64,000 nt of DNA from Candidatus Gugararchaeum adminiculabundum (GCA_902384795.1 CABMDC010000001.1:79429-143428), one strand, 5' to 3'; positions 7,582 to 26,600 are shown, counted from the stretch's first letter. Notes: a model not told the origin generated them from the letters alone. Numbers and translations: made by a program.

Positions 7582-8355
7582 ATGGTAGTTGAAAGGAAAT
7601 TTATTGAAGATGCGATTGCGCGCTACAATGTTAGCAAATTCCTAGAGGGAGAACTGGACAGGGCGGGCTTTTCGAAAGTCGACATCCAGAGGACCCCCAT
7701 GGTCACGCGCATCAGCGTTTCAGTAACCACCCCCGGTAGAGTAATCGGCCGCAAGGGCAAGAGCATTCGCGATTTGACAGAGGCAATTGAAAAGGAATTT
7801 GACATCAGCAACCCGCAGATTTCCGTTGCCAGCGTTTCCGAGCCTTCGCTTGACCCGAGATTAATGGCTAAGAAGGCAGTGAAAGGAATTGAAATGGGCA
7901 AGAACCTGCGCAGAATTTTGCAATTTTTACTCAAGGAAATCATGGACGCAGGAGCGCTGGGCGCAGAAATTGTCGCCAGTGGAAAAATCGTTGCCAAGGG
8001 AGGCCGCGCAAAAACCAAGAGAGTGTTCGCAGGCTATATCCCAAAGGCAGGTGAGCCCGCACGTTTGGTTCACGAGGCCCATGTTACCGCTTACCCGAAA
8101 TCCGGAGCAATCGGAGTGCTGGTGAGAATCGTAATGCCAGGCACGGAATTCCCGGACAAGAAGATACTCAAGCCGCTCGCATTGCCCAGGGTAATCGCAG
8201 CCGCAACCGAGGATGAAATCAATTCCAGCAGGGAAGAAACCGAGGCGGCCGATGCGGAGAAGAAGAAGCTCGCAGCAGCGGCCCAGGACGCCCGCAGAAG
8301 GATGCCCGCCCAGAAGAGGTCGGCTCCGCGCAGGCACCCGCAAAAGAGGCGTTAA
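7582..8355 (+). CDS. rps3: 30S ribosomal protein S3 (uS3) with a C-terminal K/A/R-rich tail
   Basis: KH-domain N-terminus (RISVSVTTPGRVIGRKGKSIRDL) and conserved S3 core. Confidence 0.93.
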   Translation: MVVERKFIEDAIARYNVSKFLEGELDRAGFSKVDIQRTPMVTRISVSVTTPGRVIGRKGKSIRDLTEAIEKEFDISNPQISVASVSEPSLDPRLMAKKAVKGIEMGKNLRRILQFLLKEIMDAGALGAEIVASGKIVAKGGRAKTKRVFAGYIPKAGEPARLVHEAHVTAYPKSGAIGVLVRIVMPGTEFPDKKILKPLALPRVIAAATEDEINSSREETEAADAEKKKLAAAAQDARRRMPAQKRSAPRRHPQKRR

Positions 8356-8397
8356 GCGATTAGCAGAATGAAAATGCAAAATTGAAGTGTGAAGTTT

Positions 8398-8790
8398 ATG
8401 GCAATAATAAGAAGCGAAGAAGCGCGGGAACTGAATCCCAATGAAATACAGCACAGGCTCGTGGAGCTGGAGAAGGAGTACAACTCAGAGCTTGGAAAAA
8501 TCGCGGGAGGAGGCAGGCCCGAGAACCCGGGAAGAGTGCGCGAAATAAAAAAGACAATCGCACGCCTGCTCACCATAATCAAGGAGGCAGGAACGAAGAA
8601 AAGAAAATCCACGGGAAAGCGCGCCGAAAGGATTGCCCGCGGAAAAAAGCAGGCAGCTGCGAAAGCCGAGGCAAAAATAAAAGAGGCAAAGGAAAAGAAA
8701 GCCGCAGCAAAGAAGGAAAGCGAGGATGCGGCTGCGAAGTCCGAAAAATCTGACGATAACAAATCAAAGAAATTAGAAGGTGATGACTAG
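8398..8790 (+). CDS. rpl29: 50S ribosomal protein L29 (uL29) with a roughly 65-aa Lys/Ala-rich C-terminal extension
   Basis: The N-terminal 65 aa form the L29 helical hairpin (ELNPNEIQHRLVELEKEYNSEL). ATG 8398 follows GTGAAGTTTATG. Confidence 0.85.
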   Translation: MAIIRSEEARELNPNEIQHRLVELEKEYNSELGKIAGGGRPENPGRVREIKKTIARLLTIIKEAGTKKRKSTGKRAERIARGKKQAAAKAEAKIKEAKEKKAAAKKESEDAAAKSEKSDDNKSKKLEGDD

Positions 8791-8791
8791 A

Positions 8792-9097
8792 ATGGTTGAG
8801 ACATGCCCGAAATGTGGACTGATGAAGGATATCTGCGCTTGTGATGTGCTCGAAAAGGAGGACACCCTCAAGATCAAGATATACACGACCAAGAAAAAAT
8901 TTGGAAAGCTCGTGACAATCGTCGAGGGGCTTGAGGGGGAAAAGCTGGAAAAGACAGCCAAGGAACTCAAGCACAAGCTCGCAACAGGCGGCACGGCCAA
9001 AGACGGCGTGATAGTCCTTCAGGGGAATCTCAGGGACAAGGCCTTCAAGGCATTGGTGGCGCTTGGCTATGCTGAAAACAGCATCGCCCTGAGATAA
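8792..9097 (+). CDS. sui1: Translation initiation factor aIF1 / SUI1
   Basis: N-terminal zinc-ribbon-like CPKCGL...CAC followed by the SUI1 fold (KIKIYTTKKKFGKLVTIVEGL...DGVIVLQGNLRDKAFKALVALGY). Conserved position between L29 and Rpp29. Confidence 0.85.
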   Translation: MVETCPKCGLMKDICACDVLEKEDTLKIKIYTTKKKFGKLVTIVEGLEGEKLEKTAKELKHKLATGGTAKDGVIVLQGNLRDKAFKALVALGYAENSIALR

Positions 9098-9115
9098 TTG
9101 TGAATTGAACGGCAG

Positions 9116-9424
9116 GTGTTTGGATTCATAAACAAGCAAAACATTTCAGTGCATGAGTTCATCGGGCTCAGGTGCACAGTGGTGAAATCAACTTCGCTCG
9201 CGCACACAAACCTTTCGGGGATTGTGGTCGATGAGACGAAGAACACGCTGGTGCTTGGGGCGGATGGCGGCAAAGGGGGGAAAAAGGATCTGGTGGTTCC
9301 GAAAAAAACCAGCACATTCCGCTTCACCCTTCCAACCAAAGAAACCATTGATGTGGACGGCGCGAAAATTTGTTTTGCGCCCGAGGACAGGCCCAAGAAG
9401 CTGTTCGAGAGATTGAAGTTATGA
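9116..9424 (+). CDS. rnp1: RNase P protein component 1 (Rpp29/Pop4-like)
   Basis: Conserved archaeal position between aIF1 and S17. Sm-like barrel signature (EFIGLRCTVVKSTSLAHTNLSGIVVDETKNTLVL). Confidence 0.65.
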   Translation: MFGFINKQNISVHEFIGLRCTVVKSTSLAHTNLSGIVVDETKNTLVLGADGGKGGKKDLVVPKKTSTFRFTLPTKETIDVDGAKICFAPEDRPKKLFERLKL

Positions 9425-9458
9425 TTGAAGTTTGAAAATTTGAATTTGGTGTATGATC

Positions 9459-9809
9459 ATGGCAAAGAAAAAAGAAGCAAAAAAAGAAGGCGCTGATGAA
9501 GGCTCCTGCGGAGACATCAACTGCTTCAGGCACGGCGAGCTGCCAACGCGCGGCGCGGTGCTCGAAGGGGAAGTGGTGAGCGACAAGGGAAAGCGCACGG
9601 TCATAGTTGAAAGGGAACTCGTGCAGTACGTTCCGAAATACGAGCGCAGTGCAAGGACCCATTCGCGCATTCCGGCTCACAACCCGGACTGCATCGGGGC
9701 AAAGCTCGGTGATCTCGTGCACATCGCCGAGACCAGGAAAATCAGCAGTACCAAGGCATGGACCGTGGTCGACATCGTAAAGCGAAACACTGAAGGTGCG
9801 AAGAAATGA
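9459..9809 (+). CDS. rps17: 30S ribosomal protein S17 (uS17)
   Basis: GEVVSDKGKRTVIVERELVQYVPKYERSARTHSRIPAHNPD...GDLVHIAETRKISSTKAWTVV. Confidence 0.92.
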   Translation: MAKKKEAKKEGADEGSCGDINCFRHGELPTRGAVLEGEVVSDKGKRTVIVERELVQYVPKYERSARTHSRIPAHNPDCIGAKLGDLVHIAETRKISSTKAWTVVDIVKRNTEGAKK

Positions 9810-10204
9810 AAGGACTTCCGACAAACGTAACCAAGGGTTTGACAACCAGCTCACGATTGGTGTGCGATGACAACAGCGGCGCAAAGCTGCTCATGATTAT
9901 CGGGGCAATCGGAACCAAGGGAAAGCTCGCCAGAAACCCAAGCGTTGGAGTCGGCGACATTGTGATCGTTTCAGTGAAAAAAGGAGACCCAAAAATCAGG
10001 AAGAAAGTGGAACGCGCCGTTATCACAAGGCAGCGAAAAGAATTCAGGCGCGCGAACGGAGTGCGCATCATGTTCGAGGACAATGCAGGTGTTTTGGTTG
10101 ATGACCAGAACCTGCCCAAGGGAACGGAAATCAAGGGCGCAATCGCCCGCGAGGTTGCGGAAAGATACCCTAAGGTCGCGGCTATCGCAGCAGCAGTAAT
10201 ATAG
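9806..10204 (+). CDS. rpl14: 50S ribosomal protein L14 (uL14)
   Basis: SRLVCDDNSGAK...GDIVIVSVKKG. Overlaps the rps17 stop by 4 nt. Confidence 0.93.
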   Translation: MKGLPTNVTKGLTTSSRLVCDDNSGAKLLMIIGAIGTKGKLARNPSVGVGDIVIVSVKKGDPKIRKKVERAVITRQRKEFRRANGVRIMFEDNAGVLVDDQNLPKGTEIKGAIAREVAERYPKVAAIAAAVI

Positions 10205-10213
10205 ATGATGTTT

Positions 10214-10585
10214 ATGGCAATGACAAAAACAAGGAAGAAAAGGCAACAGCACAAGTACCGTGCGCAGGCAGGCCTGCATCTCAAGCAGAGGTTCGTGCAC
10301 TGCCACCTGTCCAAGGAATTGCGCGCCAAGCTCGCGACCAAGAAGCGGGCGGTGCAGCTGCGCAAGGGCGACAAGGTGAAGGTTCTTGTGGGCGAGAAAA
10401 AGGGCACAACCGGAAAAGTGAGCGAGGTTGACCTGAACAATTCAAAGGTTTACATTGAAGGAATCACATCCAAGAAGGCAAAGGGAAACGAGGTCCTTGC
10501 GCCGGTTGACCCGAGCAACCTGGAAATAATCGAGGGGGATTTCTCGGACGCGGACAGGAAGAGGGTGCTTGAAAGAAGCAAGTAG
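10214..10585 (+). CDS. rpl24: 50S ribosomal protein L24 (uL24)
   Basis: KOW motif (LRKGDKVKVLVGEKKGTTGKVSEVD). ATG 10214 follows GATGATGTTTATG. Confidence 0.9.
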   Translation: MAMTKTRKKRQQHKYRAQAGLHLKQRFVHCHLSKELRAKLATKKRAVQLRKGDKVKVLVGEKKGTTGKVSEVDLNNSKVYIEGITSKKAKGNEVLAPVDPSNLEIIEGDFSDADRKRVLERSK

Positions 10586-10605
10586 AAATTTCGTTGGTGA
10601 AGCTT

Positions 10606-11331
10606 ATGGCAAGAAAAGGAAGATCAAATCATCTGGCTCTTTTGAGCTCGCCCGTTGCGTGGAATCTGCCGCGCAAGGGAAGGATGTGGGCCCAGAAGCC
10701 GGTCCCAGGGCCGCACGGGCTAGAGGACTCCATTCCGCTCACAGTGCTGCTGCGCGATGTGCTCAAATACGTCGAGTCGGCGCACGAGGCAAAGAAAGTT
10801 TTGCAAAAGGGATTGCTCGTTGACGGGAGAAAAATCACGGACCTGCGCTTCCCCATCGGATTGATGGACGTTCTTTCCATTCCTTCGGAAGGCAAATCCT
10901 ACAGGATCCTGATTGATTCCAAGGGAAGGTTGATGCCCGTTGAAATCAGCGAAAAGGATGCCAAGGTGAAACTCTGCAAAGTAAAAAAGAAAGTGACCAT
11001 CGCAGGCAAGAAAATCCAGATCGGCCTGCATGATGGCAGGACATTCCTCGGTGACAATCATTACAAGGTCGGTGACAGCGTGAAGTTCGATTTGCACGCG
11101 AAAAAAGTTTCCGAGAAACTCGAGCTCAAGAACGGCGCAAGATGCCTGGTGACCCAGGGAAGGCACGCCGGCAAGGTTGCCAAGCTCGAGGAAATCATCG
11201 AGAGGGCCGGAAGCATGGACGCGCAGGTGCGCATGAAGTCCAAGCACGCCGAGTTCACAACGCTCAAGAATTATGTGTTTGTGATTGATGATTCGATAAA
11301 GGAGCACGAAAGCAAGGAAGAGGGAAAATAA
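10606..11331 (+). CDS. rps4e: 30S ribosomal protein S4e
   Basis: Archaea/eukaryote-specific S4e (RKGRSNHLALLS...PLTVLLRDVLKYV...). Confidence 0.9.
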   Translation: MARKGRSNHLALLSSPVAWNLPRKGRMWAQKPVPGPHGLEDSIPLTVLLRDVLKYVESAHEAKKVLQKGLLVDGRKITDLRFPIGLMDVLSIPSEGKSYRILIDSKGRLMPVEISEKDAKVKLCKVKKKVTIAGKKIQIGLHDGRTFLGDNHYKVGDSVKFDLHAKKVSEKLELKNGARCLVTQGRHAGKVAKLEEIIERAGSMDAQVRMKSKHAEFTTLKNYVFVIDDSIKEHESKEEGK

Positions 11332-11359
11332 ATTTTGAAATTATATTTCGGTGAATTAA

Positions 11360-11869
11360 ATGGCAGGACCCATGAACGAAATCATTGTAGAAAAAGTCAC
11401 AGTCAACGTCGGCGTTGGCGAGTCGGGGCAGAAGCTGGAAAGCATCCGCACCCTGATCGGCACCATGACCGGCGCAAAGACAGTGGCAACAATATGCAAA
11501 GTCCGCAACCCTGTCTGGTCCATCAAGCTGGGAGACAAAATCGGCGTGAAATCCACGCTGAGGAAAACCCAGGCGCTGGAATTCCTGAAGAAGGCATTGC
11601 ATGCCAAGGACAACAGGGTGAGCGAAAGGAGCTTTGACAAGAAGGGCAACTTTTCGTTTGGCGTTCCCGAGTACATCGATTTCCCAGGAGTGAAATACGA
11701 TGCAAAAATCGGAATCATCGGCTTTGACGTGTGCGTGACACTCGCAAAGAAAGGAAACAGGATAACCAAGAGGAAGCGCGCAGCGGCAATTTTGGGAACC
11801 CGCGCCCGCGTGACCACCGAAGAGGGAATCGAGTTTGCAAAAAGCAAGCTGGGAATTGAAGTTTATTAG
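11360..11869 (+). CDS. rpl5: 50S ribosomal protein L5 (uL5)
   Basis: NEIIVEKVTVNVGVGESG...GIIGFDVCVTL. Confidence 0.92.
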   Translation: MAGPMNEIIVEKVTVNVGVGESGQKLESIRTLIGTMTGAKTVATICKVRNPVWSIKLGDKIGVKSTLRKTQALEFLKKALHAKDNRVSERSFDKKGNFSFGVPEYIDFPGVKYDAKIGIIGFDVCVTLAKKGNRITKRKRAAAILGTRARVTTEEGIEFAKSKLGIEVY

Positions 11870-11910
11870 AAATCAAAATGAATTGAAATGAAATTTGAAA
11901 GATGGTTTGA

Positions 11911-12099
11911 ATGGAACAAAAAGAAAAAAAGAAACTGAACCCGATTGAGCGCGAACTCATGCACAAGTTCAAGGGAAAGAACGCACGCAAGTGCAGGTTC
12001 TGCGGAACTGCCCGCGGATTAATCCGCAAGTACAAGCTGCAGATTTGCAGGCGGTGCTTCCGCGAGGTTGGCGAGAAAATCGGATTCAGGAAATATTAG
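11911..12099 (+). CDS. rps14: 30S ribosomal protein S14 type Z (zinc-binding, uS14)
   Basis: 62 aa with CRFCG...CRRC zinc ribbon. Confidence 0.92.
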
Positions 12100-12107
12100 G
12101 TGAACCC

Positions 12108-12497
12108 ATGGCAAATGATCCTCTAAGCGACGCAATGAACGTAATCAAGACGCACGAAATGGCTGGCAGGGAGCAGTGCATAGTCAAGCCCGCGAGCAAA
12201 GTGATAATGCGCGTGCTGGAAATTTTCAAGGAGCGCGGCTACATTTCCGGATTCGAGTTCAACGACAACGGAAAGAGCGGCTCGATCACAGTCAAGCTTC
12301 TGGGAAGAATCAACAAGTGCGGAACCATCAAGCCCCGCTTCGCCATCGGCTATGCGGAATGGGCCAAATGGGAGCAGAGATACATCCCCGGAAAGGGCTT
12401 CGGAGTAATTATAGTGAGCACGCCCCAGGGCATGACCACCAACGAGGACGCCCAGAAGAAGAAAATCGGAGGAAGGCTGATTGCCTATGTCTATTAG
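12108..12497 (+). CDS. rps8: 30S ribosomal protein S8 (uS8)
   Basis: MANDPLSDAMNVIKTHEMAGR...IIVSTPQGMTTNEDAQKKKIGGRLIAYVY. SD GGTGAACCCATG. Confidence 0.92.
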   Translation: MANDPLSDAMNVIKTHEMAGREQCIVKPASKVIMRVLEIFKERGYISGFEFNDNGKSGSITVKLLGRINKCGTIKPRFAIGYAEWAKWEQRYIPGKGFGVIIVSTPQGMTTNEDAQKKKIGGRLIAYVY

Positions 12498-12975
12498 CAT
12501 ACCTGAAGGAATCACAGTAACTGCCGATGCAGGCAAGGTTTCAGTCAAGGGACCCAAGGGCTCCCTGTCTGATTCGTTCAAGGACGTTTCGCTGAAAATC
12601 GAGGGAAAAGACGTCGTTGCGACCACCAAGGACCCGGTGATGGTCGGCACAGTGGAGGCGCATTTGCGCAACATGTTCATCGGAGTGACCCAGGGCTACA
12701 CGGTCAACATGAAAATAATCTACTCGCACTTTCCGCTCACGCTTGAAATAAAAGGAAAGGAAATCCTGATCAAGAATTTCGGCGGTGAAAAAATTCCGCG
12801 CAAATGCAAAATTGTCGGCGAGACAAAAGTGCAGGTCGCTGCGCAGAATGTCACGGTTACAGGAATCAGCAAATATGATGTGGGCCAGACAGTGGCAAAC
12901 CTGAGGCAGGCAACAAGGACAAAGAAAAAGGACTCAAGGGTTTTCCAGGACGGCGTTTACATCAGCGAAGAGTAA
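12487..12975 (+). CDS. rpl6: 50S ribosomal protein L6 (uL6)
   Basis: IPEGITVTADAGKVSVKGPKGSL... Confidence 0.92.
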   Translation: MSISIPEGITVTADAGKVSVKGPKGSLSDSFKDVSLKIEGKDVVATTKDPVMVGTVEAHLRNMFIGVTQGYTVNMKIIYSHFPLTLEIKGKEILIKNFGGEKIPRKCKIVGETKVQVAAQNVTVTGISKYDVGQTVANLRQATRTKKKDSRVFQDGVYISEE

Positions 12976-13023
12976 GTGAAATGGCAAGTTGAATGAATCA
13001 AATGAAAATTCGGTGAAATATTT

Positions 13024-13401
13024 ATGGCAAAAGAACAGGCAAAAACGCAGGCAGTCAAGCGCGCCAAAAAGAAATGGCACCCGAAGTTCGCAAGAATGAA
13101 CCTCGGAAGGAGCTCGCGCTCAAGAGTGGGCGAGAGCTGGAGAAGGCCGCGCGGCATTGACAACAAGCAGAAGCGCAGATGCGCCTATGTGCCAAGCCGC
13201 CCGCGCATCGGCTACGGGAACCCGAAGGAAATCAAGCACCTGCACCCCTGCGGATTGCACGAGGCATTGGTTGAAAATCCCGGACAGGTTGCCAAGCTCC
13301 AGGGCGTTGTTGTAAGAATCGCCTCCGGAGTCGGCGGAAAAAAGAGAAAAGTGATCATCGACGCATGCGTGAAGAAAAACCTCCGCGTGCTGAACGCGTA
13401 G
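13024..13401 (+). CDS. rpl32e: 50S ribosomal protein L32e
   Basis: Archaea/eukaryote-specific L32e (KKWHPKFARMNLGRSS...GYGNPKEIKHLHPCGLHEALV). Confidence 0.9.
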   Translation: MAKEQAKTQAVKRAKKKWHPKFARMNLGRSSRSRVGESWRRPRGIDNKQKRRCAYVPSRPRIGYGNPKEIKHLHPCGLHEALVENPGQVAKLQGVVVRIASGVGGKKRKVIIDACVKKNLRVLNA

Positions 13402-13440
13402 AATGATTGAAGATTCATTTGCATTTAGGAGATTGATGAA

Positions 13441-14118
13441 ATGTCATTGACAACCGTAAAAAGAATCGCATCCGATTTGCTCGGAATCGGCGAGAGCAGG
13501 ATTAGGATTTCGCCAGAACCTGAGCAGACCAAGCGCGCAGCCGAGGCGCTCACGCGCGACGACATCCGCGGGCTCATAGACGAGGGAATCGTTTACACCC
13601 TTCCGACCCAGGGAGTTTCCCGAGGGCGCGCAAGGCACAGGCACTTGCAGCAAAAGAAAGGAAGGCAGCGCGGGCATGGCACTCACAAGGGAGAGAAATA
13701 TTCCATTGTTTCCAAGAAGCAGCACTGGATGCAGAAGGTCCGCTCCCAGAGAAGCATCCTTTTCAGGCTCAAGGAGCAGGGGCTTCTTGCGGACGGAATT
13801 TACAGGATTGCATACCTGATGATCAAGGGCGCGGCATTCAAGTCCAAGGGCGCAATGCTCGTGCACTTCAAGGAAAAGAAATGGCTGACACGGGACATTA
13901 CCGCGGCTGAAATACAGAATCCGCTTGCAGCAGAGCACGCAGCGAAAAAGGCAAAGCTGGAAAAGCCAAGGAACCCTGCGAAGCCGAAGCAGACGGCGAA
14001 AAAGCCGAAAGAGGCCGGCGCGAAAAAAGAGCACGCGCACGTGAAAAAAGAGGCCGAAGAGGAAAAGAAGCACGCCAAGAAAGACGAGGCAAAGCACGAG
14101 GAAAAACATAAGAAGTGA
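13441..14118 (+). CDS. rpl19e: 50S ribosomal protein L19e with a Lys-rich C-terminal tail
   Basis: N-terminal L19e core (KRIASDLLGIGESRIRISPE...). The C-terminus KKAKLEKPRNPAKPKQTAKKPKEAGAKKEHAHVKKEAEEEKKHAKKDEAKHEEKHKK is low complexity. Confidence 0.9.
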   Translation: MSLTTVKRIASDLLGIGESRIRISPEPEQTKRAAEALTRDDIRGLIDEGIVYTLPTQGVSRGRARHRHLQQKKGRQRGHGTHKGEKYSIVSKKQHWMQKVRSQRSILFRLKEQGLLADGIYRIAYLMIKGAAFKSKGAMLVHFKEKKWLTRDITAAEIQNPLAAEHAAKKAKLEKPRNPAKPKQTAKKPKEAGAKKEHAHVKKEAEEEKKHAKKDEAKHEEKHKK

Positions 14119-14123
14119 TGATT

Positions 14124-14621
14124 ATGGGCAGAGCACGAGGACCAACTTACAGTGTAAAATTCCGCAGAAGGAGGGAGAGCCTTACCAATTACAGCAAGAG
14201 GCTCGCGCTAGTGCAATCTGAGACTCCAAGGCTGGTTGTGAGAAAGAGCAACCGCGGAGTGCGCGTTCAATTCATCGAGTACGATGCGCCTGGCGACAAG
14301 ACCATCGCAGCAGCCGATTCCAAGGCATTGGTAAAAATGGGCTGGCCTGCGAAGTGCAACTCGCCAACGGCATACTTGACCGCAATGCTCGCAGCAGTGC
14401 GCGCAAAGAAAAAAGGAATCAGCAAATTCGTGCTTGACATCGGCCTCAACTCCCCGAGCAAGGGCTCGGTGGTTTTCGCGGCACTGAAGGGCGCGCTGGA
14501 CGCTGGGCTTCAGGCAAATGCCGGCGAAGGGCTGTTTGACGAGAAAAGAATCAGGGGCGAGCACCTGAAGACAGACGCTGCATTGTTTGACAAGACAAAG
14601 GCGCACGTGCTCAAGCAGTAA
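14124..14621 (+). CDS. rpl18: 50S ribosomal protein L18 (uL18)
   Basis: GPTYSVKFRRRRESLTNYSKRLALV...PRLVVRKSNR. ATG follows GTGATGATTATG. Confidence 0.9.
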   Translation: MGRARGPTYSVKFRRRRESLTNYSKRLALVQSETPRLVVRKSNRGVRVQFIEYDAPGDKTIAAADSKALVKMGWPAKCNSPTAYLTAMLAAVRAKKKGISKFVLDIGLNSPSKGSVVFAALKGALDAGLQANAGEGLFDEKRIRGEHLKTDAALFDKTKAHVLKQ

Positions 14622-14681
14622 TGAAATTTGAATTTAATAAAAATTGACGAAACGAATGAAATGAATTTAACGGTGATTTGA

Positions 14682-15326: not shown

Positions 15327-15336
15327 GGAGATTTGA

Positions 15337-15844: not shown

Positions 15845-16468
15845 ATGACCAGACGATTCAAAAGAGCGCACAGGAAAAGACTCGGACGCGGAAGGGTCCA
15901 CGGAAGAGGCAATGCCAAGCACGGAAGAGGAGGCGGAGAGCGCGGAGGAGTAGGTCTCGGAGGAGGCCAGAAGCAGAGATGGACATGGATGATCCGCTAC
16001 ATGCCGGGCCACTTCGGTGTGCATGGATTCCAGCCCCCGCAGAACAATGATGTTGCTACCACTAATTTGTATGATATAGACCAGCTGGCTCTTGCAGGAA
16101 AGCTCAAGAAAGAGGGCGACAAGCTCCTGTTTGAATTCAAGGGCAAGGTGCTCGGAACAGGCGCACTGCATTTCCCGATTGCGGCAACCGCGGACAGCTT
16201 TTCCAAGCATGCGATTGAGAAAATCCAGAAGGCAGGGGGAAGCGCAACAGCAACCAAGCCTCCTAAAATGAAAAAGGAAAAGCCAGCGCCCGGAGCAAAA
16301 CCAGCACAGGCACAAGCACCGAAGCAATCCGCGCCAAAGCCAGCGCAAACAGCAAAACCCGCTGCCCCCGTTCAAGCGCCAAAGCCGTCACAGGCTCAGA
16401 AACCAGCAGCACCCGCGCACACTCACGCTCCAAAGCCAGCTCCTGCGCAGGCCCCGAAGAAAGAATAA
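15845..16468 (+). CDS. rpl15: 50S ribosomal protein L15 (uL15) with a roughly 70-aa Pro/Ala/Lys/Gln-rich C-terminal tail
   Basis: Gly/Arg-rich N-terminus and L15 core. The tail APGAKPAQAQAPKQSAPKPAQTAKPAAPVQAPKPSQAQKPAAPAHTHAPKPAPAQAPKKE is unusual. ATG follows GGTGAAGCCTATG. Confidence 0.88.
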   Translation: MTRRFKRAHRKRLGRGRVHGRGNAKHGRGGGERGGVGLGGGQKQRWTWMIRYMPGHFGVHGFQPPQNNDVATTNLYDIDQLALAGKLKKEGDKLLFEFKGKVLGTGALHFPIAATADSFSKHAIEKIQKAGGSATATKPPKMKKEKPAPGAKPAQAQAPKQSAPKPAQTAKPAAPVQAPKPSQAQKPAAPAHTHAPKPAPAQAPKKE

Positions 16469-19140: not shown

Positions 19141-19200
19141 GAATAAAAAGCAAATGCTCCCCAATGTTTAGCCCAACTTACAGCATGTGGTCGATGTTAT

Positions 19201-19722: not shown

Positions 19723-19755
19723 AACAGAAGTAAGCACCATAAGTAGTCGGTCTCT

Positions 19756-20715
19756 ATGAAAATTCGAAAAGAGTTCACCACTAATCCTGCGTTCGGGACT
19801 CAGCCCGAAAAGCGTTCTATCGAGCAGCTGCTCCGCTCGGGCATAGTGCTGATCAACAAGCCCTGCGGCCCTTCTTCGCACGAGGTTTCCGCATTTGTTG
19901 CAAAAATTCTGGGCATAGAAAAATCAGGCCACACCGGTACTCTTGACCCGCAGGTTTCCGGAGTCCTGCCGGTGATGCTCGGCAGCGCGACAAAAATTTC
20001 CCGCTTCATCACAGCGAAAGACAAGGAGTACGTTGGCATCATGAAACTGCACAAGGACATTTCCACTGAGAAAATTCTCGCAGGAATGAAATCATTTGTT
20101 GGCGAAATAACCCAGCTGCCCCCGTTGAAAAGCGCGGTTGCGCGCAGGTTCCGCCAGAGAAAAATTTATGATTTCAAGTTCATTGAAAAAAATGGCCCGC
20201 AGGTTTTATTTTCCTGCAGATGCGAGGCAGGCACCTACATCCGGACTCTTTGCGCTGACCTGGGAAAGAAACTTGGGACCGGTGCGCACATGATTGAACT
20301 CAGGAGGACAGCGGTTGGCAGGCTTTCGGAAAAAGACTGTTTCACGCTCCAGGAGCTGAGCGATGCCTTTTGGCTCCACAAGCACAAGGGCGAGGAGGGG
20401 GAAATCCGCAAAATCCTCAGGCCCGTGGAATCCCTCATAGACCTCAAAAAAGTGGTTATAGACGACCTTGCCGCCGGAGCGGTCTGCGCAGGCGCCCAGC
20501 TCGCCGTACCCGGCGTCGTGGCTACCGACGAAAACATTAATAAAGGTGAGCTGATAAATATTTTGACCCTGAAGAATGAGCTTGTCTCAATTTCTCAGGC
20601 TGAAATGAGCACTGAACAGATGTTAAGTGAAGAGCGAGGAATAGTTGCGAGAACAGTGCGAGTAGTCATGCCGCGGGGTGTTTACCCCGAGAAACGGCCG
20701 ACTGCGGATAGCTAA
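19756..20715 (+). CDS. cbf5: tRNA/rRNA pseudouridine synthase Cbf5 (H/ACA RNP catalytic subunit)
   Basis: TruB catalytic motif (GHTGTLDPQVSGVLPVMLG) and C-terminal PUA domain. Confidence 0.9.
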   Translation: MKIRKEFTTNPAFGTQPEKRSIEQLLRSGIVLINKPCGPSSHEVSAFVAKILGIEKSGHTGTLDPQVSGVLPVMLGSATKISRFITAKDKEYVGIMKLHKDISTEKILAGMKSFVGEITQLPPLKSAVARRFRQRKIYDFKFIEKNGPQVLFSCRCEAGTYIRTLCADLGKKLGTGAHMIELRRTAVGRLSEKDCFTLQELSDAFWLHKHKGEEGEIRKILRPVESLIDLKKVVIDDLAAGAVCAGAQLAVPGVVATDENINKGELINILTLKNELVSISQAEMSTEQMLSEERGIVARTVRVVMPRGVYPEKRPTADS

Positions 20716-20727
20716 TGTTCTCCACAT

Positions 20728-20750
20728 CCGCCTTTTTACAAAAAAGGCGG
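20728..20750 (+). terminator. Perfect 10-bp stem hairpin ccgccttttt-aca-aaaaaggcgg immediately after cbf5, terminator-like
   Basis: Inverted repeat seen directly. Sits at the operon end before the tRNA-Ser promoter. Confidence 0.5.
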
Positions 20751-20841
20751 AAGCGAAAAACTTCTCTGAAGCCCCCAAAACTCTGCTCCTCAGCAAAATC
20801 AAAGGTAAATAATATTTGCCCTGTGAATTTTTGCATATCAT

Positions 20842-20925
20842 GCCGAGGTGGCAGAACCTGGTAACGCGCTAGACTGGAAATCTAGTGCCCTTTCGGGCTT
20901 AGGAGTTCAAATCTCCTCCTCGGCG
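20842..20925 (+). tRNA. tRNA-Ser (anticodon GGA) with a long variable arm
   Basis: Acceptor GCCGAGG/CCTCGGC. Anticodon loop CTGGAAA within stem CTAGA/TCTAG. Variable arm TGCCCTTTCGGGCTTAGG. T-arm GGAGTTCAAATCTCC. Confidence 0.85.
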
Positions 20926-21036
20926 TTGCGCTTTTTAGAAAAAAGCGCCCAAAAACCGAAGGTACGGGGCTTTGCCCCGAAACCCCGTTCATGCTCGTTA
21001 TTCGCGAGAGAAAAGTTGCATTTGCAGTTGATTGTA

Positions 21037-21813
21037 ATGGCTGTTGGAAAAACAAAAAAGAAATTCAAGAACAAGGAGCCCCCGCGGGCCCATGGCGCAA
21101 AGCAGGAAGAGAGGAAAATAGACGAGAACAAGAAGCTTGCGTCGGGAGTAATGTTCAAGGACATCCGCGGTATCGTCCGCCTAAGCGGCAAAGATGTTCC
21201 GGGTGAAACAGACCTGAAGCACGCGCTCGCAAAAGTAAAAGGCATAGGCGAAAGGCTCGCCCAAATTTTACACCCGGTCATTATTTCCGAATTGCACTTG
21301 CACGAAAAGGCTGTAATCGGCGAACTGAACGACGAACAGCTCGACCACATGGAAAAAATTCTTTCTAATCCTTTGCAATACAAGATTCCTGCATTTCTGG
21401 TAAACCGGCAGGGCGATGCCCAGGCAGCCGGGGAAACCAGGCACCTGATCGGCAATGATCTTTCATTCGCCACCAGGCAGGATATTGAGCGCGAGAAAAA
21501 CCTATTTACCTGGAAAGGCTACAGGCATGCCTATGGCCAGAAAGTAAGAGGACAGCACACCCGCACCAGCGGAAGACAGGGAATGACGGTCGGAGTCATG
21601 AGGTCTGCGCTCAAGGCAGCGGCAGGAGCCGGAGTGCCCGACGCAGCAGCGGCCCAGAAGGCGGCAATAGACGCAGCAACCGGGGCAGCACCCAAGGCAG
21701 GGCCTGCACCCAAAGGGGCAGCAAAAGGAGCAGCACCGGCAGCCGGAAAAGCGCCGGCAGCAGGAGCGGCACCGGCAGCAAAACCAGCGGCCAAGCCAGC
21801 TGAGAAAAAGTAA
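21037..21813 (+). CDS. rps13: 30S ribosomal protein S13 (uS13) with a roughly 100-aa Ala/Pro/Lys/Gly-rich C-terminal tail
   Basis: FKDIRGIVRLSGKDVPG...GIGERLAQ core. The tail AAAGAGVPDAAAAQKAAIDAATGAAPKAGPAPKGAAKGAAPAAGKAPAAGAAPAAKPAAKPAEKK is low complexity. Confidence 0.85.
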   Translation: MAVGKTKKKFKNKEPPRAHGAKQEERKIDENKKLASGVMFKDIRGIVRLSGKDVPGETDLKHALAKVKGIGERLAQILHPVIISELHLHEKAVIGELNDEQLDHMEKILSNPLQYKIPAFLVNRQGDAQAAGETRHLIGNDLSFATRQDIEREKNLFTWKGYRHAYGQKVRGQHTRTSGRQGMTVGVMRSALKAAAGAGVPDAAAAQKAAIDAATGAAPKAGPAPKGAAKGAAPAAGKAPAAGAAPAAKPAAKPAEKK

Positions 21814-21844
21814 TTTTATTGTCAATTGATTTTTAGGTGAACAA

Positions 21845-22510
21845 ATGGGAGACCCACGAAGATTAACCAACAAATACGAGACCCCAAGAAAAGTCTGGGA
21901 CGTGCAGAGGCTGGAAGAGGAATCAGCACTCCTAAAGGAATACGGCCTCAAGAACATGCGCGAGTTGTGGGTAATTTCCAAGGAGCTGAAGCGCATAAGG
22001 CGTGAGGCAAGGAAAATGCTTTCATTGGGAGAAGAGGGCGCGAAGAAAGCAGAGCCCCTGCTCACAAAAGTCAAAAAGTTAGGATATCTTTCAGGAGACA
22101 TCACACTAGACAGTTTGCTTTCGCTTGATATCAAATCACTTCTTGAGCGCAGATTGCAAACCCAGGTTGTAAGGCGCGGCTTGGCCCGCACATTCAAGCA
22201 GTCACGCCAGCTCGTGACCCACGGATTCGTAATGATAAACGGCAGAAAAGTCAATGTTCCAAGCTACATTGTTCCAATCAGCGAGGAAAGCACACTTTCC
22301 TATTACAAGGCAATCGACATCGGCGCAGCCCCGGTCGGCGGCACTGAAAAACCAGGAAGATCTGAAGAGCACGGAAGGTTTGACCGGCGCGGCGGAAGAG
22401 GCGGCGGGCGTGGCGGTGGCCGCGGCGGATTCAGGCAGCAGAGGCATTCTTCGCCAGCAGCCCCGGCAGCACCTACAGCAGCGCCAAAGCCAGCGGAAAA
22501 ATCCGAATAA
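21845..22510 (+). CDS. rps4: 30S ribosomal protein S4 (uS4) with a C-terminal RGG-repeat tail
   Basis: S4 domain (QVVRRGLARTFKQSRQLVTHGFVMINGRKVNVPSYIV). The tail DRRGGRGGGRGGGRGGFRQQRHSSPAAPAAPTAAPKPAEKSE is unusual. Confidence 0.88.
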   Translation: MGDPRRLTNKYETPRKVWDVQRLEEESALLKEYGLKNMRELWVISKELKRIRREARKMLSLGEEGAKKAEPLLTKVKKLGYLSGDITLDSLLSLDIKSLLERRLQTQVVRRGLARTFKQSRQLVTHGFVMINGRKVNVPSYIVPISEESTLSYYKAIDIGAAPVGGTEKPGRSEEHGRFDRRGGRGGGRGGGRGGFRQQRHSSPAAPAAPTAAPKPAEKSE

Positions 22511-22541
22511 ACATTTATGATTCAATTTTCACGGTGAACTC

Positions 22542-23129
22542 ATGAGCGAAAAAGAAAAACCCAAGGAAGAAAAAAAGCACGAGAAGGATGCCGAGAAGCC
22601 CAAGGCCGAGAAGAAGCACGAGCACACCGAGCCCAAGAAAGAGGGAAAGCCCGAGGAGAAAAAATCCGAAGCCAAGGGCGATGAAAAAGCACCCGCAGCA
22701 TCCGAAGCTCCGGCGCCAATAGTGGTTGATGAAAGAAAGCCCATGAAAAGAAGGTGGGCGATCGCACACGTTTTCTCATCCAAGAACGACACCATAATCA
22801 CGATCACAGATGTAAGCGGCGCAGAAACAATTGCGCGTGTTTCAGGTGGAATGATAGTGAAAGCTGACAGGGAAGAGGGTTCACCCTATGCCGCAATGCA
22901 GGCCGCGATCCAGGCCGCAACGCAGGCGAAAAACAAAGGAATCACCGGAGTGCACATCCGCATCCGCGCACCAGGAGGCTCGGGAAGTTTCAACCCGGGG
23001 CCAGGAGCGCAGGCGGTTGTCCGTGCCCTTGCAAGGTCAGGACTGAGAATCGGAAAGATTGAAGACGTCACTCCGATTCCGACCGACTCGACCAAGAGGC
23101 CTGGAGGAAGGAGGGGAAGAAGGGTATGA
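22542..23129 (+). CDS. rps11: 30S ribosomal protein S11 (uS11) with a roughly 65-aa K/E-rich N-terminal extension
   Basis: Core [50 protein letters not shown]... Confidence 0.9.
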
Positions 23130-23695
23130 AAATCGAAATCCATAAGGATGAAGATCACGTGCTCGAGTTCACGCTCAAGGATGCCACCACGGCTTTTGCC
23201 AACGGGATTCGCCGCTGCTGCATGGGACAGGTTCCCACGTTCGCAATCCAGAAGGTCACGATTTACGAGAATACGAGCGCCATGTTTGACGAGTATGTCA
23301 CCAACAGGCTTGGCATGATTCCGCTCAAGAGCGAGTCCAAGCACACGGACAAGGATGAGATAATGTTCACCCTTGACGCCGAGGGCCCGTGCACCGTGAC
23401 GAGCAAGGACCTGAAGAGCAGCGACTCGAAAATCAAGGTCGCGAACCAGAATCTTCCGATCATGAAACTGCTGGACAAGCAGAAGCTCAGGCTCGAAGCG
23501 ACCGCAATCCTCGGAAAAGGGAGGGTCCATGGGAAATTCCAGCCGGGAATCGCATCCTACAAAATGGACAAGTCCGGCGCATTCAAGTTCAAGGTTGAAT
23601 CATTCGGGCAGTTAAATGCAAAACACATCGTTTTGCAGGCGACCCGCATTTTGGAAGAGAAATGCGAGGAGCTCGAGAAATTATTGAAGGAGTAA
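23126..23695 (+). CDS. rpoD: DNA-directed RNA polymerase subunit D (Rpo3), short form
   Basis: Dimerisation domain ([60 protein letters not shown]). Conserved position after S11. Confidence 0.75.
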
Positions 23696-23725
23696 GGAGT
23701 GAATTTCAGCGCCCCTCAATCAGCT

Positions 23726-23810
23726 GCGGGGGTGGCAGAGCCTGGTCAAATGCGCAAGGTTGAGGGCCTTGTGACTTAGGTCTACAAGGGTTCAAATCCC
23801 TTCTCCCGCA
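23726..23810 (+). tRNA. tRNA-Leu (anticodon GAG) with a long variable arm
   Basis: Acceptor GCGGGGG/CTCCCGC. Anticodon loop TTGAGGG in stem CAAGG/CCTTG. Variable arm TGACTTAGGTCTACA. T-arm AGGGTTCAAATCCCT. Confidence 0.85.
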
Positions 23811-23860
23811 TTGCGTTCACAGAGAGAAAATCAAAACAAAAAAAAAGAAAAGTGACAATT

Positions 23861-24220
23861 ATGAAATCAGGACCGGAAAACGAGCACATCATCGATCTCG
23901 CGCGCTTCCTGCGCAAACAATCAGTGGAGCACAAGGCTCCCATATGGCGCAGGATTGCCGACGACCTCACAGCCCCGCGCAGGAACAAGATTGAAGTGAA
24001 CATCAGCAAGCTCGCGCGCCTTTCCCAGGACGGAAAAGTCATCCTGGTGGCTGGAAAGGTTCTGGGCTCTGGAAGGATTGACAAGAAGGTTGAAGTGGCC
24101 GCGGTTGCATTCTCAAAAACCGCCCGCGAAATGATTACAAAGGCAGGCGGAAAATGCCTGGAGATTAAGCAGGTAGTTGAAAGCAAGCCAACAGGAAACG
24201 GCGTGCATTTAGTAAAATAG
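23861..24220 (+). CDS. rpl18e: 50S ribosomal protein L18e
   Basis: Archaeal L18e (HIIDLARFLRKQSVEHKAPIWRRIADDL...RRNKIEVNISKL). ATG follows GTGACAATTATG. Confidence 0.85.
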   Translation: MKSGPENEHIIDLARFLRKQSVEHKAPIWRRIADDLTAPRRNKIEVNISKLARLSQDGKVILVAGKVLGSGRIDKKVEVAAVAFSKTAREMITKAGGKCLEIKQVVESKPTGNGVHLVK

Positions 24221-24255
24221 AATTTATTTGAAAATAAAATTTACAGATGATATTT

Positions 24256-24699
24256 ATGGCAAAACAGCTTGTAATTGACGCGAACAATGGCGTACTGGGC
24301 AGGATCGCAGCCAGGGTTGCAAAGCACCTGCTGGGCGGCGATTCCATAGTCCTGGTCAATGCAGAAAAGCTGGTAATCTCCGGGGATCCGGCAGTGACCG
24401 CCGAGAAATACCTCGCGCGCAGAAGGGTGAAGAACAAGGCAAACCCCGAGCACTCGCCCAAGTGGCCGCGCAGGCCTGACTTCCTGGTGCGCAGGGTAAT
24501 CCGCGGAATGCTCCCATTCTATTCCAGACGGGGAAGGAATGCATTCAAGAACCTGAGAGTTTACATTGGTATTCCTGAAGAGTTCGCAAACGCAAAGCTG
24601 ATGGAATTCGAGCAGGCGAGCGCAAACCTTCTTGATTCAAAGAAAAGATGCACGGTCGAGCAATTGTGCACAAGAATGGGCTTCAGATTAGAGAAATAG
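24256..24699 (+). CDS. rpl13: 50S ribosomal protein L13 (uL13)
   Basis: VIDANNGVLGRIAARVAKHLLGGDSIVLVNAEKLVISG. ATG follows GATGATATTTATG. Confidence 0.9.
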   Translation: MAKQLVIDANNGVLGRIAARVAKHLLGGDSIVLVNAEKLVISGDPAVTAEKYLARRRVKNKANPEHSPKWPRRPDFLVRRVIRGMLPFYSRRGRNAFKNLRVYIGIPEEFANAKLMEFEQASANLLDSKKRCTVEQLCTRMGFRLEK

Positions 24700-24751
24700 A
24701 TGAAATAAAATTGAACGATGAAAAAGAAACGCGAAAATTAATGTGATATTT

Positions 24752-25201
24752 ATGGACGCAACCGCAACACCGAAACCAAAGAAAAAGAAGGCAGCAGCGA
24801 AATCCAAATCAATAACTGAGAGAGGAAAGCGCAAGGAGAGCGTTGCGCGCGCATCCATCAAAAAAGGAAAGGGAACGGTCCGCGTGAACAGGTTCAATGT
24901 GAACGCGCTCCCTGACAAATATTTGAAGGCAGTAATCACCCAGCCGCTCGCCATCGCAGGCGCCGCGGTGAATGATGTTGACATCGATGTCACTGTTTAC
25001 GGCGGAGGCCCCATGGGCCAGGCCCAGGCAGTGGCGAATGCGATCACAAAAGCGATTCTCGCCTACACCAAGGACGATTCCCTCAGGCACAGGTTCCTGG
25101 AGATCGACAAGTTCCTGGTGGTTGAGGATTCAAGAAGGGTTGAGCCCAAGAAATACAAGGGACCCAAGGCAAGGGCCAGGTTCCAGAAGAGTTACCGTTA
25201 A
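24752..25201 (+). CDS. rps9: 30S ribosomal protein S9 (uS9)
   Basis: GKRKESVARASIKKGKGTVRVN...GGGPMGQAQAVANAITKAIL...RFQKSYR. Confidence 0.92.
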   Translation: MDATATPKPKKKKAAAKSKSITERGKRKESVARASIKKGKGTVRVNRFNVNALPDKYLKAVITQPLAIAGAAVNDVDIDVTVYGGGPMGQAQAVANAITKAILAYTKDDSLRHRFLEIDKFLVVEDSRRVEPKKYKGPKARARFQKSYR

Positions 25202-25233
25202 ACAAACAGCCATTGGCTGGATTGGTGGTATGA

Positions 25234-25431
25234 ATGTTATTCCCCATAAGATGTTTCACCTGCGGCGCAGTGATTGCTGACAAGTACGAGGATTTCGTTG
25301 AAAAGACGCGCGAAGGCGAGGACAAGGGCAAGGTATTGGACAAGCTCGGAGTGGAGAGATACTGCTGCCGAAGGATGTTCCTCACGCACGTGAATGTAAT
25401 AGACGACATATCGCTTTGCGATAGGTTCTAG
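25234..25431 (+). CDS. rpoN: DNA-directed RNA polymerase subunit N (Rpo10)
   Basis: 65 aa. [13 protein letters not shown]...CCRRM zinc-binding motif. Confidence 0.88.
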
Positions 25432-25456
25432 GTCCATAAAATTCATAAAATCGGAA

Positions 25457-25529
25457 GGGGCTGTGGGCTAACCTGGCATGCTTCCAGCTTGGGGTGCTGG
25501 CGATCTGAGTTCAAATCTCGGCAGCCCCA
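25457..25529 (+). tRNA. tRNA-Pro (anticodon GGG)
   Basis: Acceptor GGGGCTG/CAGCCCC. Anticodon loop TTGGGGT in stem CCAGC/GCTGG. T-arm GAGTTCAAATCTC. The overlapping minus-strand ORF is spurious. Confidence 0.85.
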
Positions 25530-25537
25530 TTGCCCAT

Positions 25538-25562
25538 CCTTTTCTTTTGCGAAAAGAAAAGG
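25538..25562 (+). terminator. Perfect 11-bp stem hairpin ccttttctttt-gcg-aaaagaaaagg just downstream of tRNA-Pro
   Basis: Inverted repeat seen directly. Terminator or processing hairpin. Confidence 0.45.
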
Positions 25563-25769
25563 CTGGTCGAATCCAAAAGAAAAAATGAGTGACAAGCAAG
25601 AACTCGAAAACGCGCGGATGAAAAGCTCGCGATAACTCGCTCGCTTTTCCTCCCAACATTATATTTGCGCAAGTTCTCCCGAAGAAGTGGATGAAAGCGC
25701 CGGTTGCCATCGGCTGCCGGCAGGGTGCTTTCGCGCCTATTGCCTGCGGGGCTCTTGTACGGTGATTAA

Positions 25770-26600
25770 ATGAGTGATTTGTTAATACAGCAGGAAAAAT
25801 ATCTTGAGGCAGGAGTGCACATCGGCACAAAAATAAAATGCGCCGACATGATCCGCTTCATCTACAAGGAGCGCGAAGACCGCCTTTTCGTTTTAGACCT
25901 TAGAAAAATTGACGAGAGGATCAAATACGCCGCAAAAGTAATTGCCAATTACAAGCCCGAGGATGTCGCCGTTGTCGCTTCCCGTTTGTACGCTGAAAAC
26001 GCGGCAAGAAAATTCTGCGAGCTCACCGGAGCAAAACTGATTTCCGGAAGATTCGTTCCGGGAATGTTTACCAACACAATCAGGCCCAACTTCGCAGAGC
26101 CGAAGCTGGTTCTCATCTGCGATCCAAGAGGCGAGAGGCAGGCTGCAATTGAGGCCGGCCAGCGCGGAGTTGCGGTGATCGGATTGTGCGACACTGACAA
26201 CCGCACCTCATTCATAGACTTCGTAATCCCCTGCAACAACAAGGGGCGAAAGTCGCTTGCACTTATTTTCTACCTTCTGGCGCGCGAGCTCCTGAAGGCA
26301 AAGGGAGTGATCTCCGACTATTCGGACTTCGCGGCCAAGCTCGAGGAATTCGAGGAATTCAAGGACGAGCCGGTCGAAGGCGAAGGGGCGGAAGGAGAAG
26401 GCGCGGCTGGAGCAGAGAAATCCGAAGAGGCTGCGGACTCCAAGCAGGTCCTTGAAGTGGAAAAAACCATTGAAGAGGCAAAAAAGCCCTCAAAACCAAG
26501 GAAAAAGAAAGAGCCTGCTGAAGGCGAAGCGACCGAAGCTGCGGCAAAGGACGAGTCTGCATCAGCCAAAGCTCCGGCTGAAGAAAAACCCGACGAATAA
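25770..26600 (+). CDS. rps2: 30S ribosomal protein S2 (uS2) with a roughly 75-aa acidic/Ala-rich C-terminal tail
   Basis: YLEAGVHIGTKIKCADMIRFIYKEREDRLFVLDL...LICDPRGERQAAIEA. TATA cattatattt at 25657-25666 and SD GGTGATTAAATG. Confidence 0.9.
   Translation: MSDLLIQQEKYLEAGVHIGTKIKCADMIRFIYKEREDRLFVLDLRKIDERIKYAAKVIANYKPEDVAVVASRLYAENAARKFCELTGAKLISGRFVPGMFTNTIRPNFAEPKLVLICDPRGERQAAIEAGQRGVAVIGLCDTDNRTSFIDFVIPCNNKGRKSLALIFYLLARELLKAKGVISDYSDFAAKLEEFEEFKDEPVEGEGAEGEGAAGAEKSEEAADSKQVLEVEKTIEEAKKPSKPRKKKEPAEGEATEAAAKDESASAKAPAEEKPDE

Follow-up and report, generated by a model that had tools for sequence, protein, structure and literature searches.

At least nine ribosomal proteins of Candidatus Gugararchaeum adminiculabundum were confirmed to carry real terminal tails of 40-77 residues, which are rich in Lys, Ala, Pro and Glu or contain an Arg-Gly-Gly (RGG) box and which together add over 550 residues of charged sequence of low complexity. 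The genes lie in a stretch of 64,000 nucleotides (GCA_902384795.1 CABMDC010000001.1:79429-143428), referred to below as the window and numbered from its first letter. The organism is represented by a single assembly, LFW-121_3, and is the type of the order Gugararchaeales (Micrarchaeota/DPANN); the paper reporting its genome does not mention extensions of ribosomal proteins (PMC8561730). The tails are read here, with a probability of roughly 0.6, as genuine low-complexity extensions on the termini of universal and archaeal ribosomal proteins that serve as charged arms on the ribosome surface.

Extent and composition of the tails

A comparison set of 80 syntenic loci around SecY was assembled from species-representative genomes, and orthologues were assigned by iterated hidden Markov model (HMM) searches. 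The C-terminal overhang of each protein was measured as the pairwise BLAST offset to its Thermococcus orthologue, Thermococcus being zero by definition; tail lengths based on MAFFT alignments were dropped because reference C-termini were smeared into the tails (eL19 read +29 and uS4 +16). Core identities and boundaries were taken from Pfam matches above the curated cut-offs, with the conserved ribosomal-protein cores intact, and the cores align near full length to chains of solved archaeal ribosomes (PDB). The overhangs against Thermococcus are +42 for uL22, +38 for uS3, +60 for uL29, +74 for eL19, +70 for uL15, +66 for uS13 and +42 for uS4, compared with at most 9 extra residues in the remaining 14 ribosomal proteins measured. 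As assessed by Thermococcus and PDB lengths, an entropy mask and composition, the extra segments are terminal, lie past the ends of the orthologues and are of low sequence complexity. The segments are listed below with their residue numbers and, where determined, net charge.

7429..7560, + strand: uL22, C-terminal Lys-rich tail (residues 150-192 of the 192-residue protein at 6982-7560; +42 relative to Thermococcus)
8212..8355, + strand: uS3, C-terminal Ala/Arg/Lys/Glu-rich tail (residues 211-257; +38 to 47; net charge +6)
8596..8790, + strand: uL29, C-terminal Lys/Ala/Glu tail (residues 70-133; +60 to 64; net charge +10)
13885..14118, + strand: eL19, C-terminal Lys/Ala/Glu/Pro/His tail (residues 149-225; +74 to 77; net charge +9)
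16256..16468, + strand: uL15, C-terminal Pro/Ala/Lys/Gln tail (residues 142-211; +70 relative to Thermococcus; net charge +12)
21037..21153, + strand: uS13, probable N-terminal Lys-rich extension (residues 1-39; start codon at 21037 or 21151)
21607..21813, + strand: uS13, C-terminal Ala/Pro/Lys/Gly tail (residues 191-258; 66-68 residues; net charge +7)
22370..22510, + strand: uS4, C-terminal tail (residues 176-221; RGG box followed by an Ala/Pro-rich end; +42 relative to Thermococcus)
22542..22715, + strand: uS11, N-terminal Lys/Glu/Pro extension (residues 1-58; net charge 0)
26367..26600, + strand: uS2, C-terminal Glu/Ala/Lys tail (residues 200-276; net charge -10)

Set against archaeal PDB chains, uL29 has 133 residues instead of 65-71, eL19 has 225 instead of 143-151 and uL22 has 192 instead of 150-155, eukaryotic uL22 chains having 183-187; the uL22 tail is Lys-rich yet 31% hydrophobic. 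The Pfam S3_C domain of uS3 ends at residue 183, and the uL15 tail consists of 26% Pro, 27% Ala and 20% Lys. Core residues 3-195 of the 276-residue uS2 align to residues 4-196 of a 202-residue archaeal chain, leaving about +75 at the C terminus, and core residues 68-195 of the 195-residue uS11 align to residues 10-137 of the 137-residue Pyrococcus abyssi chain, leaving about +58 at the N terminus; a GGTGA motif resembling a Shine-Dalgarno (SD) sequence stands at -9 of the ATG at 22542 with which the uS11 extension begins.

The start of uS13 was more difficult to place. A 321-residue S13 open reading frame (ORF) was rejected, as it overlaps the tRNA gene given below and 20848-21036 is noncoding.

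20841..20926, + strand: tRNA-Ser(GGA), found with ARAGORN and Rfam

Because the longer ORF crosses this tRNA gene, uS13 starts no earlier than 21037 and has at most 258 residues, of which core residues 41-190 align to residues 2-146 of a 148-residue archaeal chain. An N-terminal extension of +39 is therefore probable, and no clear SD-like motif was found ahead of the candidate start at 21037.

An earlier note on this DNA had listed tails on most of these proteins, and the lengths relative to Thermococcus and to solved archaeal chains bear it out; alignment to archaeal orthologues, which it had proposed as a check, found the tails absent from Thermococcus and from every solved archaeal ribosome. 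Its sizes were in part too generous, as the C-terminal tail of S13, put at about 100 residues, measures 66-68, and of the several proteins said to be roughly doubled in length only uL29 is in fact doubled (1.9-fold), the other extended proteins being 1.2-1.7 times as long as their references.

ORF length was rejected as evidence for the tails, because the purine-skewed strand leaves noncoding frames open over long distances: in sense out-of-frame reads of the region, a stretch of at least 42 codons is stop-free with P=0.19 and one of at least 70 codons with P=0.06. In a tally of 617 residues, which includes a 29-residue N-terminal stretch of uS9 that has no reference comparison, the tails consist of 74% Lys/Ala/Pro/Glu/Gly/Gln and 8% hydrophobic residues, compared with 40% and 33%, respectively, in the cores. 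Synonymous codon use for Lys, Glu, Ala, Pro, Gly, Gln and Arg is the same in tails and cores (all p>0.05). Frame 0 is free of stops in all ten tails and no other frame is open across all ten, one alternative frame also being stop-free in 4 of them. The eL19 protein deposited at NCBI for Ca. Gugararchaeum adminiculabundum is 100% identical over its 225 residues, tail included.

Applying one uniform rule to all window proteins (a hydrophobic-poor terminal segment of at least 30 residues) flagged 8 of 29 ribosomal proteins and 1 of 38 others (Fisher p=0.008). Most tails are net-positive, the seven Thermococcus-referenced C-terminal tails summing to +56; that of uS2 is the only acidic one and the uS11 extension is neutral. 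Tandem Repeats Finder detected weak, in-frame DNA repeats in four tails, namely those of uS13 (periods 12 and 18, 21673-21780), uS4 (period 12 in the RGG box, 22389-22428), uS2 (periods 9 and 15, 26341-26406) and eL19 (period 12, 14080-14105). Since these repeats fit codon-repeat slippage, the tails may have grown in that way.

The eL19 and uL29 tails were also modelled with AlphaFold2. The eL19 model, computed from a 20-sequence alignment, has a core with a predicted local distance difference test score (pLDDT) above 90, followed by a helix at 155-174, a low-confidence Pro-rich linker at 175-197 and a second helix at 198-224 (pLDDT 72-80). In the uL29 model, computed from the single sequence, the second core helix runs unbroken from 49 to 115 and the last 18 residues are coil. 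These models suggest that the tails of uL29 and eL19 are largely helical, probably forming long exposed helices, rather than purely disordered. For uL15, uS13 and uS4, whose tails are Pro-rich, helices are not to be expected.

Distribution among relatives and the uS4 RGG box

Related genomes encode tails as well, and no Micrarchaeota or Iainarchaeota locus with good coverage is free of tails of at least 10 residues. Summed over the same 21 ribosomal proteins, tail length is 42-282 residues in those loci, compared with 392 in the window and 15 in a second Thermococci genome, while the Nitrososphaerales loci have no tails on the few proteins they cover. The tail set of the window is the largest and most cationic among the sampled loci. 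Recurrent tails in the relatives measure 10-113 residues on uS3, 25-131 on uL22, 13-76 on uS4 and 13-59 on uS13; those of uL29 reach up to 68 and those of eL32 up to 96 residues, those of uL15 range from 0 to 44, and uS5, uS17 and uL24 are tailed in some loci.

Between related orders the tails turn over fast. Their sequences cannot be aligned between relatives, their composition is similar, and presence and absence flip between sister orders; loci L004 and L018 are almost tail-free, and the eL19 overhang is only +0 to +12 in the four closest loci. Elsewhere among archaea, two eL19 proteins (P0132 and P0133) have Lys/Ala/Glu/Arg-rich tails of about 90 residues. The closest relatives (L001, L003, L012 and L017) have N-terminal extensions of 45-75 residues on uS11 and 30-70 residues on uS13. 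A C-terminal uS13 tail of 13-59 residues, typically ending in ...EKK/KK, is borne by 17 related loci, and only this short Ala/Pro/Lys tail is fairly consistent and comes near to a constant. To judge from the sequences compared, the tails are a clade-level tendency with fast turnover. The earlier note had suggested them as a possible taxonomic marker for this lineage; they are not confined to it and make a poor discrete marker, because across Micrarchaeota and Iainarchaeota the subset of proteins carrying them varies and the tail sequences are unalignable.

In L001, the closest relative (SecY identity 66%), the uL22 orthologue has a 131-residue C-terminal tail with a long His/Glu-rich run (HEHKHEGEGHSHEGHEHDHAHEGHEHAHEH...), which makes it a different type of low-complexity tail that may bind metal.

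Within the uS4 tail, the RGG box was read directly from the sequence.

22385-22432, + strand: uS4, RGG box RRGGRGGGRGGGRGGF (residues 181-196)

It holds four RGG units spaced by 0-1 residues and thus falls under the tri-RGG definition of at least three RGG units 0-4 residues apart, which is said to go back to Thandapani et al. in 2013. Two Phe residues stand around the box, the tails otherwise lacking the aromatic residues that are typical of phase-separating domains. None of the 110 closest uS4 homologues (Micrarchaeota and allies, with Ala/Pro/Glu tails) has an RGG run. A separate group of uS4 proteins at about 48-50% identity, which are those of Bathyarchaeia, ends in ...RGRRGGRGGGRF, and this end is kept in 114 of 120 Bathyarchaeia uS4 cluster representatives drawn from 3510 proteins at E<=1e-40.

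P0111-P0120 and P0144-P0259: Bathyarchaeia uS4 proteins, among which the RGG end is conserved
Locus L081, 6001-6594: Bathyarchaeia uS4 gene with the RGG end

An archaeal ribosomal protein can therefore bear an RGG tail and can conserve it, as in Bathyarchaeia, and RGG tails, which the earlier note had called classically eukaryotic, are not confined to eukaryotes. The RGG end of Gugararchaeum uS4 is an independent gain relative to Bathyarchaeia. Neither of the two RGG ends was found described in the literature searched.

Gene cluster and neighbouring features

ORF lists, Pfam scans and tRNA predictions place an archaeal ribosomal-protein supercluster at 3.7-26.6 kb of the window, on the + strand, in the following order.

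First block, + strand: uL3, uL4, uL23, uL2, uS19, uL22, uS3 and uL29, then SUI1 and Rpp29
Second block, + strand: uS17, uL14, uL24, eS4, uL5, uS14, uS8, uL6, eL32, eL19, uL18, uS5, uL30 and uL15
Third block, + strand: SecY, Adk, a DUF106-like membrane protein, Cmk, Cbf5 and tRNA-Ser
Last block, + strand: uS13, uS4, uS11, RpoD and tRNA-Leu, then eL18, uL13, uS9, tRNA-Pro and uS2

For the membrane protein between Adk and Cmk, DUF106-like is a tentative assignment of ours. RpoD (23126-23695) has only 189 residues, about 60 fewer than Thermococcus RpoD in a pairwise comparison; it is similarly short in other Micrarchaeota loci and of full length in Iainarchaeota-type loci.

The common ribosome-binding motif of the cluster is GGTGA at -9/-10. 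In many cases an SD-like GTGAT/GGTGA located 5-9 nt ahead of the real ATG contains the first potential start codon (GTG, TTG or ATG), as upstream of 8389, 24743, 24247, 10205, 14115, 15833 and 10594. Mechanical ORF calls consequently gain 3-4 false residues (VKFM..., VIFM..., LVKPM...). Purines are in strong excess on the coding strand of window 1-26600 (+), with an AT skew of 0.19-0.35 and a GC skew of up to 0.15, and antisense frames are therefore open over long distances, giving many false antisense ORFs in mechanical lists.

Low-complexity segments also occur on other proteins of the window, including the two non-ribosomal ones that the earlier note had named, ScpB and the first ORF, on both of which they were found.

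2491..3006, + strand: ScpB, N-terminal extension of about 170 residues with Lys-rich and Glu/Pro/Ala-rich low-complexity blocks (start codon uncertain)
79..264, + strand: first ORF (79-531, no Pfam match), N-terminal Pro/Ala/Glu/Lys-rich segment of 62 residues

The Pfam domain of ScpB spans residues 173-316 only, and VEKATKMKS occurs twice in the N-terminal extension; the overlap of this ORF with the end of ScpA leaves its start codon uncertain. In a 565-residue ORF at 58628-60325 that has no Pfam match, a hydrophobic N-terminal segment precedes a Lys/Pro/Glu-rich block of about 135 residues (residues 138-272); this block is the largest low-complexity region outside the ribosomal cluster. The Lys-rich N terminus (KREKKEKKYKVKKKK) of a 117-residue ORF at 44968-45321 is encoded by an A-rich repeat tract, and a 43-nt A-rich run lies upstream of this ORF at 44464-44506.

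Interpretation and significance

In the surface-arm reading, codon-repeat slippage plus drift of stop or start codons would have given rise to the tails. The termini concerned are assumed, going by known ribosome structures, to reach into the solvent, where added residues would leave assembly undisturbed. On the ribosome surface the tails would then serve as electrostatic arms, flexible or helical, of which the Lys-rich and RGG ones would bind the phosphates of ribosomal RNA (rRNA) and messenger RNA (mRNA) non-specifically. The tails would also keep the particle soluble, and selection would act on composition and charge and not on sequence. Of the cores concerned, uS3 and uS4 lie at the mRNA entry, uS2 and uS11 at the exit and platform, uS13 in the head and uL22 and uL29 near the exit of the tunnel. 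That the tails are translated and occur, exposed to solvent, on the mature ribosome is supported indirectly, by their core-like codon usage, the SD-like motif ahead of the uS11 extension and their recurrence in relatives.

Several observations weigh against this reading. The tail positions rest on textbook core structures, the uS2 tail is acidic, and many loci of relatives have near-neutral Lys/Glu tails with a net charge of about 0. The tail helices are predicted with moderate confidence (pLDDT 67-81), uL29 having been folded without an alignment. No relative in genome contigs exceeds 66% SecY identity, which is too distant for ratios of nonsynonymous to synonymous substitution (dN/dS) or for indels; in metagenome contigs the best SecY identity is 58%, plus a 126-residue fragment at 71%, again too distant for dN/dS. 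The extreme turnover between orders would fit weak or no selection equally well.

The most credible alternative, possible but on balance doubtful, is accordingly that the tails are a neutral by-product, the tolerated junk of slippage and stop-codon loss under weak purifying selection, with no ribosomal role and with the avoidance of hydrophobic, aggregation-prone sequence as sole constraint. This would account for tails that differ wholly in presence, length and sequence from one related order to another, down to almost none in L004 and L018, for a net charge that is unconserved across relatives, for DNA repeats that point to slippage, and for the similar blocks on ScpB, the first ORF and ORF 58628-60325. 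However, it does not sit well with the enrichment on ribosomal relative to other window proteins, with the repeated extension of uS3, uS4, uS13, uL22, uL29 and uL15 in independent lineages, or with the recurring ...EKK/KK end of the uS13 tail, and added residues on the most abundant proteins are costly for a small genome and cell. The strong conservation of the uS4 RGG end in Bathyarchaeia also argues against it, since this shows that low-complexity tails can come under selection.

It is improbable that the RGG and Lys-rich tails drive multivalent clustering of ribosomes with RNA, or of ribosomes with nucleoid and membrane, in very small cells. A four-fold RGG box together with many polycationic tails on one particle would suit such a condensate or tether, as would the similar blocks on the first ORF and on ScpB, a chromosome-condensation subunit, and membrane or RNA interactions have been proposed for flexible coats of this kind (preprint, bioRxiv 10.64898/2026.06.18.733196). 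However, aromatic 'sticker' residues are almost absent from the tails, there is a single RGG box, and in the relatives RGG is missing and the tails are often neutral.

Shared ancestry with the eukaryote-specific extensions of uL22, uL29, eL19, uS2, uS3 and uS11 is very improbable, despite the same termini and eukaryote-like lengths (225 residues against 180-214 for eL19, 192 against 183-187 for uL22 and 276 against 245-308 for uS2), the N-terminal position of the uS11 extension, as in eukaryotic uS11, phmmer alignments that reach into the eukaryotic tails of uS2, uS11, eL19 and uL22, and predicted helices as in eukaryotic eL19 and uL29. Residue-level alignment of uL22 to the eukaryotic Lys-rich C-extension gave weak, purely compositional similarity, and homology was rejected on this ground and because the nearest relatives lack the tails or have wholly different ones, as with eL19. 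Since the large uL15 and uS13 tails, moreover, have no eukaryotic counterpart, convergence is the best reading of the likeness, on the assumption that growth is open only to certain solvent-exposed termini.

An assembly or annotation artefact, in which frameshifts or missed stops make false tails, has a negligible probability: the purine-skewed region is rich in long stop-free runs and the 321-residue S13 ORF was indeed over-extended across a tRNA gene, but a frameshift origin, named in the earlier note as what would undo its proposal, is excluded for the tails as a class by the stop-free frame 0 next to alternative frames that contain stops, the biased composition shared by ten tails, their core-like codons, the tails on the same proteins in independent assemblies and the identical NCBI gene call for eL19.

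The surface-arm reading can be set beside several known systems. Relative to the eukaryotic extensions of uL22 (L17), uL29 (L35), eL19, uS2 (SA), uS3 and uS11 (S14), the window tails occupy the same termini with similar added length, share a Lys/Glu/Ala-rich composition and have predicted long helices in eL19 and uL29, but they show no detectable tail homology and are unconserved even among sister orders. The eukaryotic extensions, in contrast, have fixed sequences and defined contacts, such as the eL19 helix in bridge eB12. With eukaryotic RGG/GAR motifs (fibrillarin, the N terminus of uS5/Rps2) the uS4 box shares four RGG units, flanking Phe and an RNA-binding carrier, whereas it sits in an archaeal host and at the C terminus of uS4; its closest natural parallel is the conserved end of Bathyarchaeia uS4. 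Lys/Ala/Pro-rich 'H1-like' tails are found on bacterial nucleoid proteins such as mycobacterial HupB and Pseudomonas AlgP. The uL15 and uS13 tails share AKP/PAAK-type repeats with these, but the carriers differ and no DNA-binding role is implied. The C-terminal domain of histone H1 has about 40% Lys with Ala and Pro, contains S/TPKK motifs, accompanies a winged-helix globular domain and binds DNA. The term 'histone-H1-like', which the earlier note had used, is therefore apt for composition only, as the tails have 15-30% Lys and no S/TPKK motifs and are carried by ribosomal proteins.

In prokaryotic ribosomal proteins low-complexity regions are frequent, mostly C-terminal, dominated by Ala, Glu and Lys and located at the surface (Ntountoumi et al. 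2019, PMC6821194); the archaeal proteins bearing them are mainly S3, S24e, L10 and L12, and Ala is unenriched in archaeal low-complexity regions overall (PMC6821194). The window tails resemble these in terminal position, in Ala/Glu/Lys dominance and, presumably, in lying at the ribosome surface, and uS3 is common to both. They differ in that at least nine proteins of one gene cluster carry tails of 40-77 residues, in being Pro/Ala/Lys-rich and including an RGG box, and in affecting uL29, eL19, uL15, uS13, uS4, uS11, uS2 and uL22, all outside that list. The earlier note had called such tails atypical of archaeal ribosomal proteins; they are absent from the solved archaeal structures, and C-terminal Ala/Glu/Lys-rich regions had already been reported as common in the ribosomal proteins of prokaryotes. 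An Ala/Lys-rich tail is also known from Parcubacteria uS19 (PMC9297842), on a different carrier and likewise in a small-celled, reduced-genome lineage (candidate phyla radiation (CPR) there, DPANN here), and eukaryotic ribosomes are reported to have a disordered, flexible 'coat' enriched in Lys and Ala (2026 preprint, bioRxiv 10.64898/2026.06.18.733196). With prokaryotic, Parcubacteria and eukaryotic low-complexity tails on record, the type of feature is already known. The literature searched held no specific description of extensions on DPANN/Micrarchaeota ribosomal proteins or of archaeal RGG ribosomal proteins. The novelty lies in how densely one organism is tailed, in which proteins are affected and in the Micrarchaeota-Iainarchaeota patchwork; as the evidence stands, the feature is descriptive, belongs at the level of a lineage and involves no new mechanism or system.

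For practical purposes, ribosomal proteins are made longer by the tails, which can upset the marker-gene HMMs and alignments used in DPANN phylogenomics and are to be expected as unresolved density in any Micrarchaeota ribosome structure. Their wider interest lies in the fact that terminal extensions are the main route by which ribosomal proteins have diversified between domains, a route whose origin is poorly documented. In the relatives the process can be seen at various stages and on various proteins, and the group may serve as a comparative set for asking whether extensions start by neutral slippage, at which termini they are tolerated and at what point they are fixed; the uS4 RGG end of Bathyarchaeia is an example of fixation. 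It may even be, although we consider this rather unlikely, that Micrarchaeota and Iainarchaeota independently evolved an 'extended-protein' ribosome, with charged helical or disordered arms gained repeatedly at the sites extended in eukaryotes (the C termini of uL22, uL29, eL19, uS2 and uS3 and the N terminus of uS11), some of them functional. In that case the RGG end of uS4, which lies at the mRNA entry and was gained independently in Gugararchaeum and Bathyarchaeia, would suggest a specific part in the handling of mRNA or rRNA. Such a ribosome would constitute a natural experiment on how the extensions of ribosomal proteins originate.

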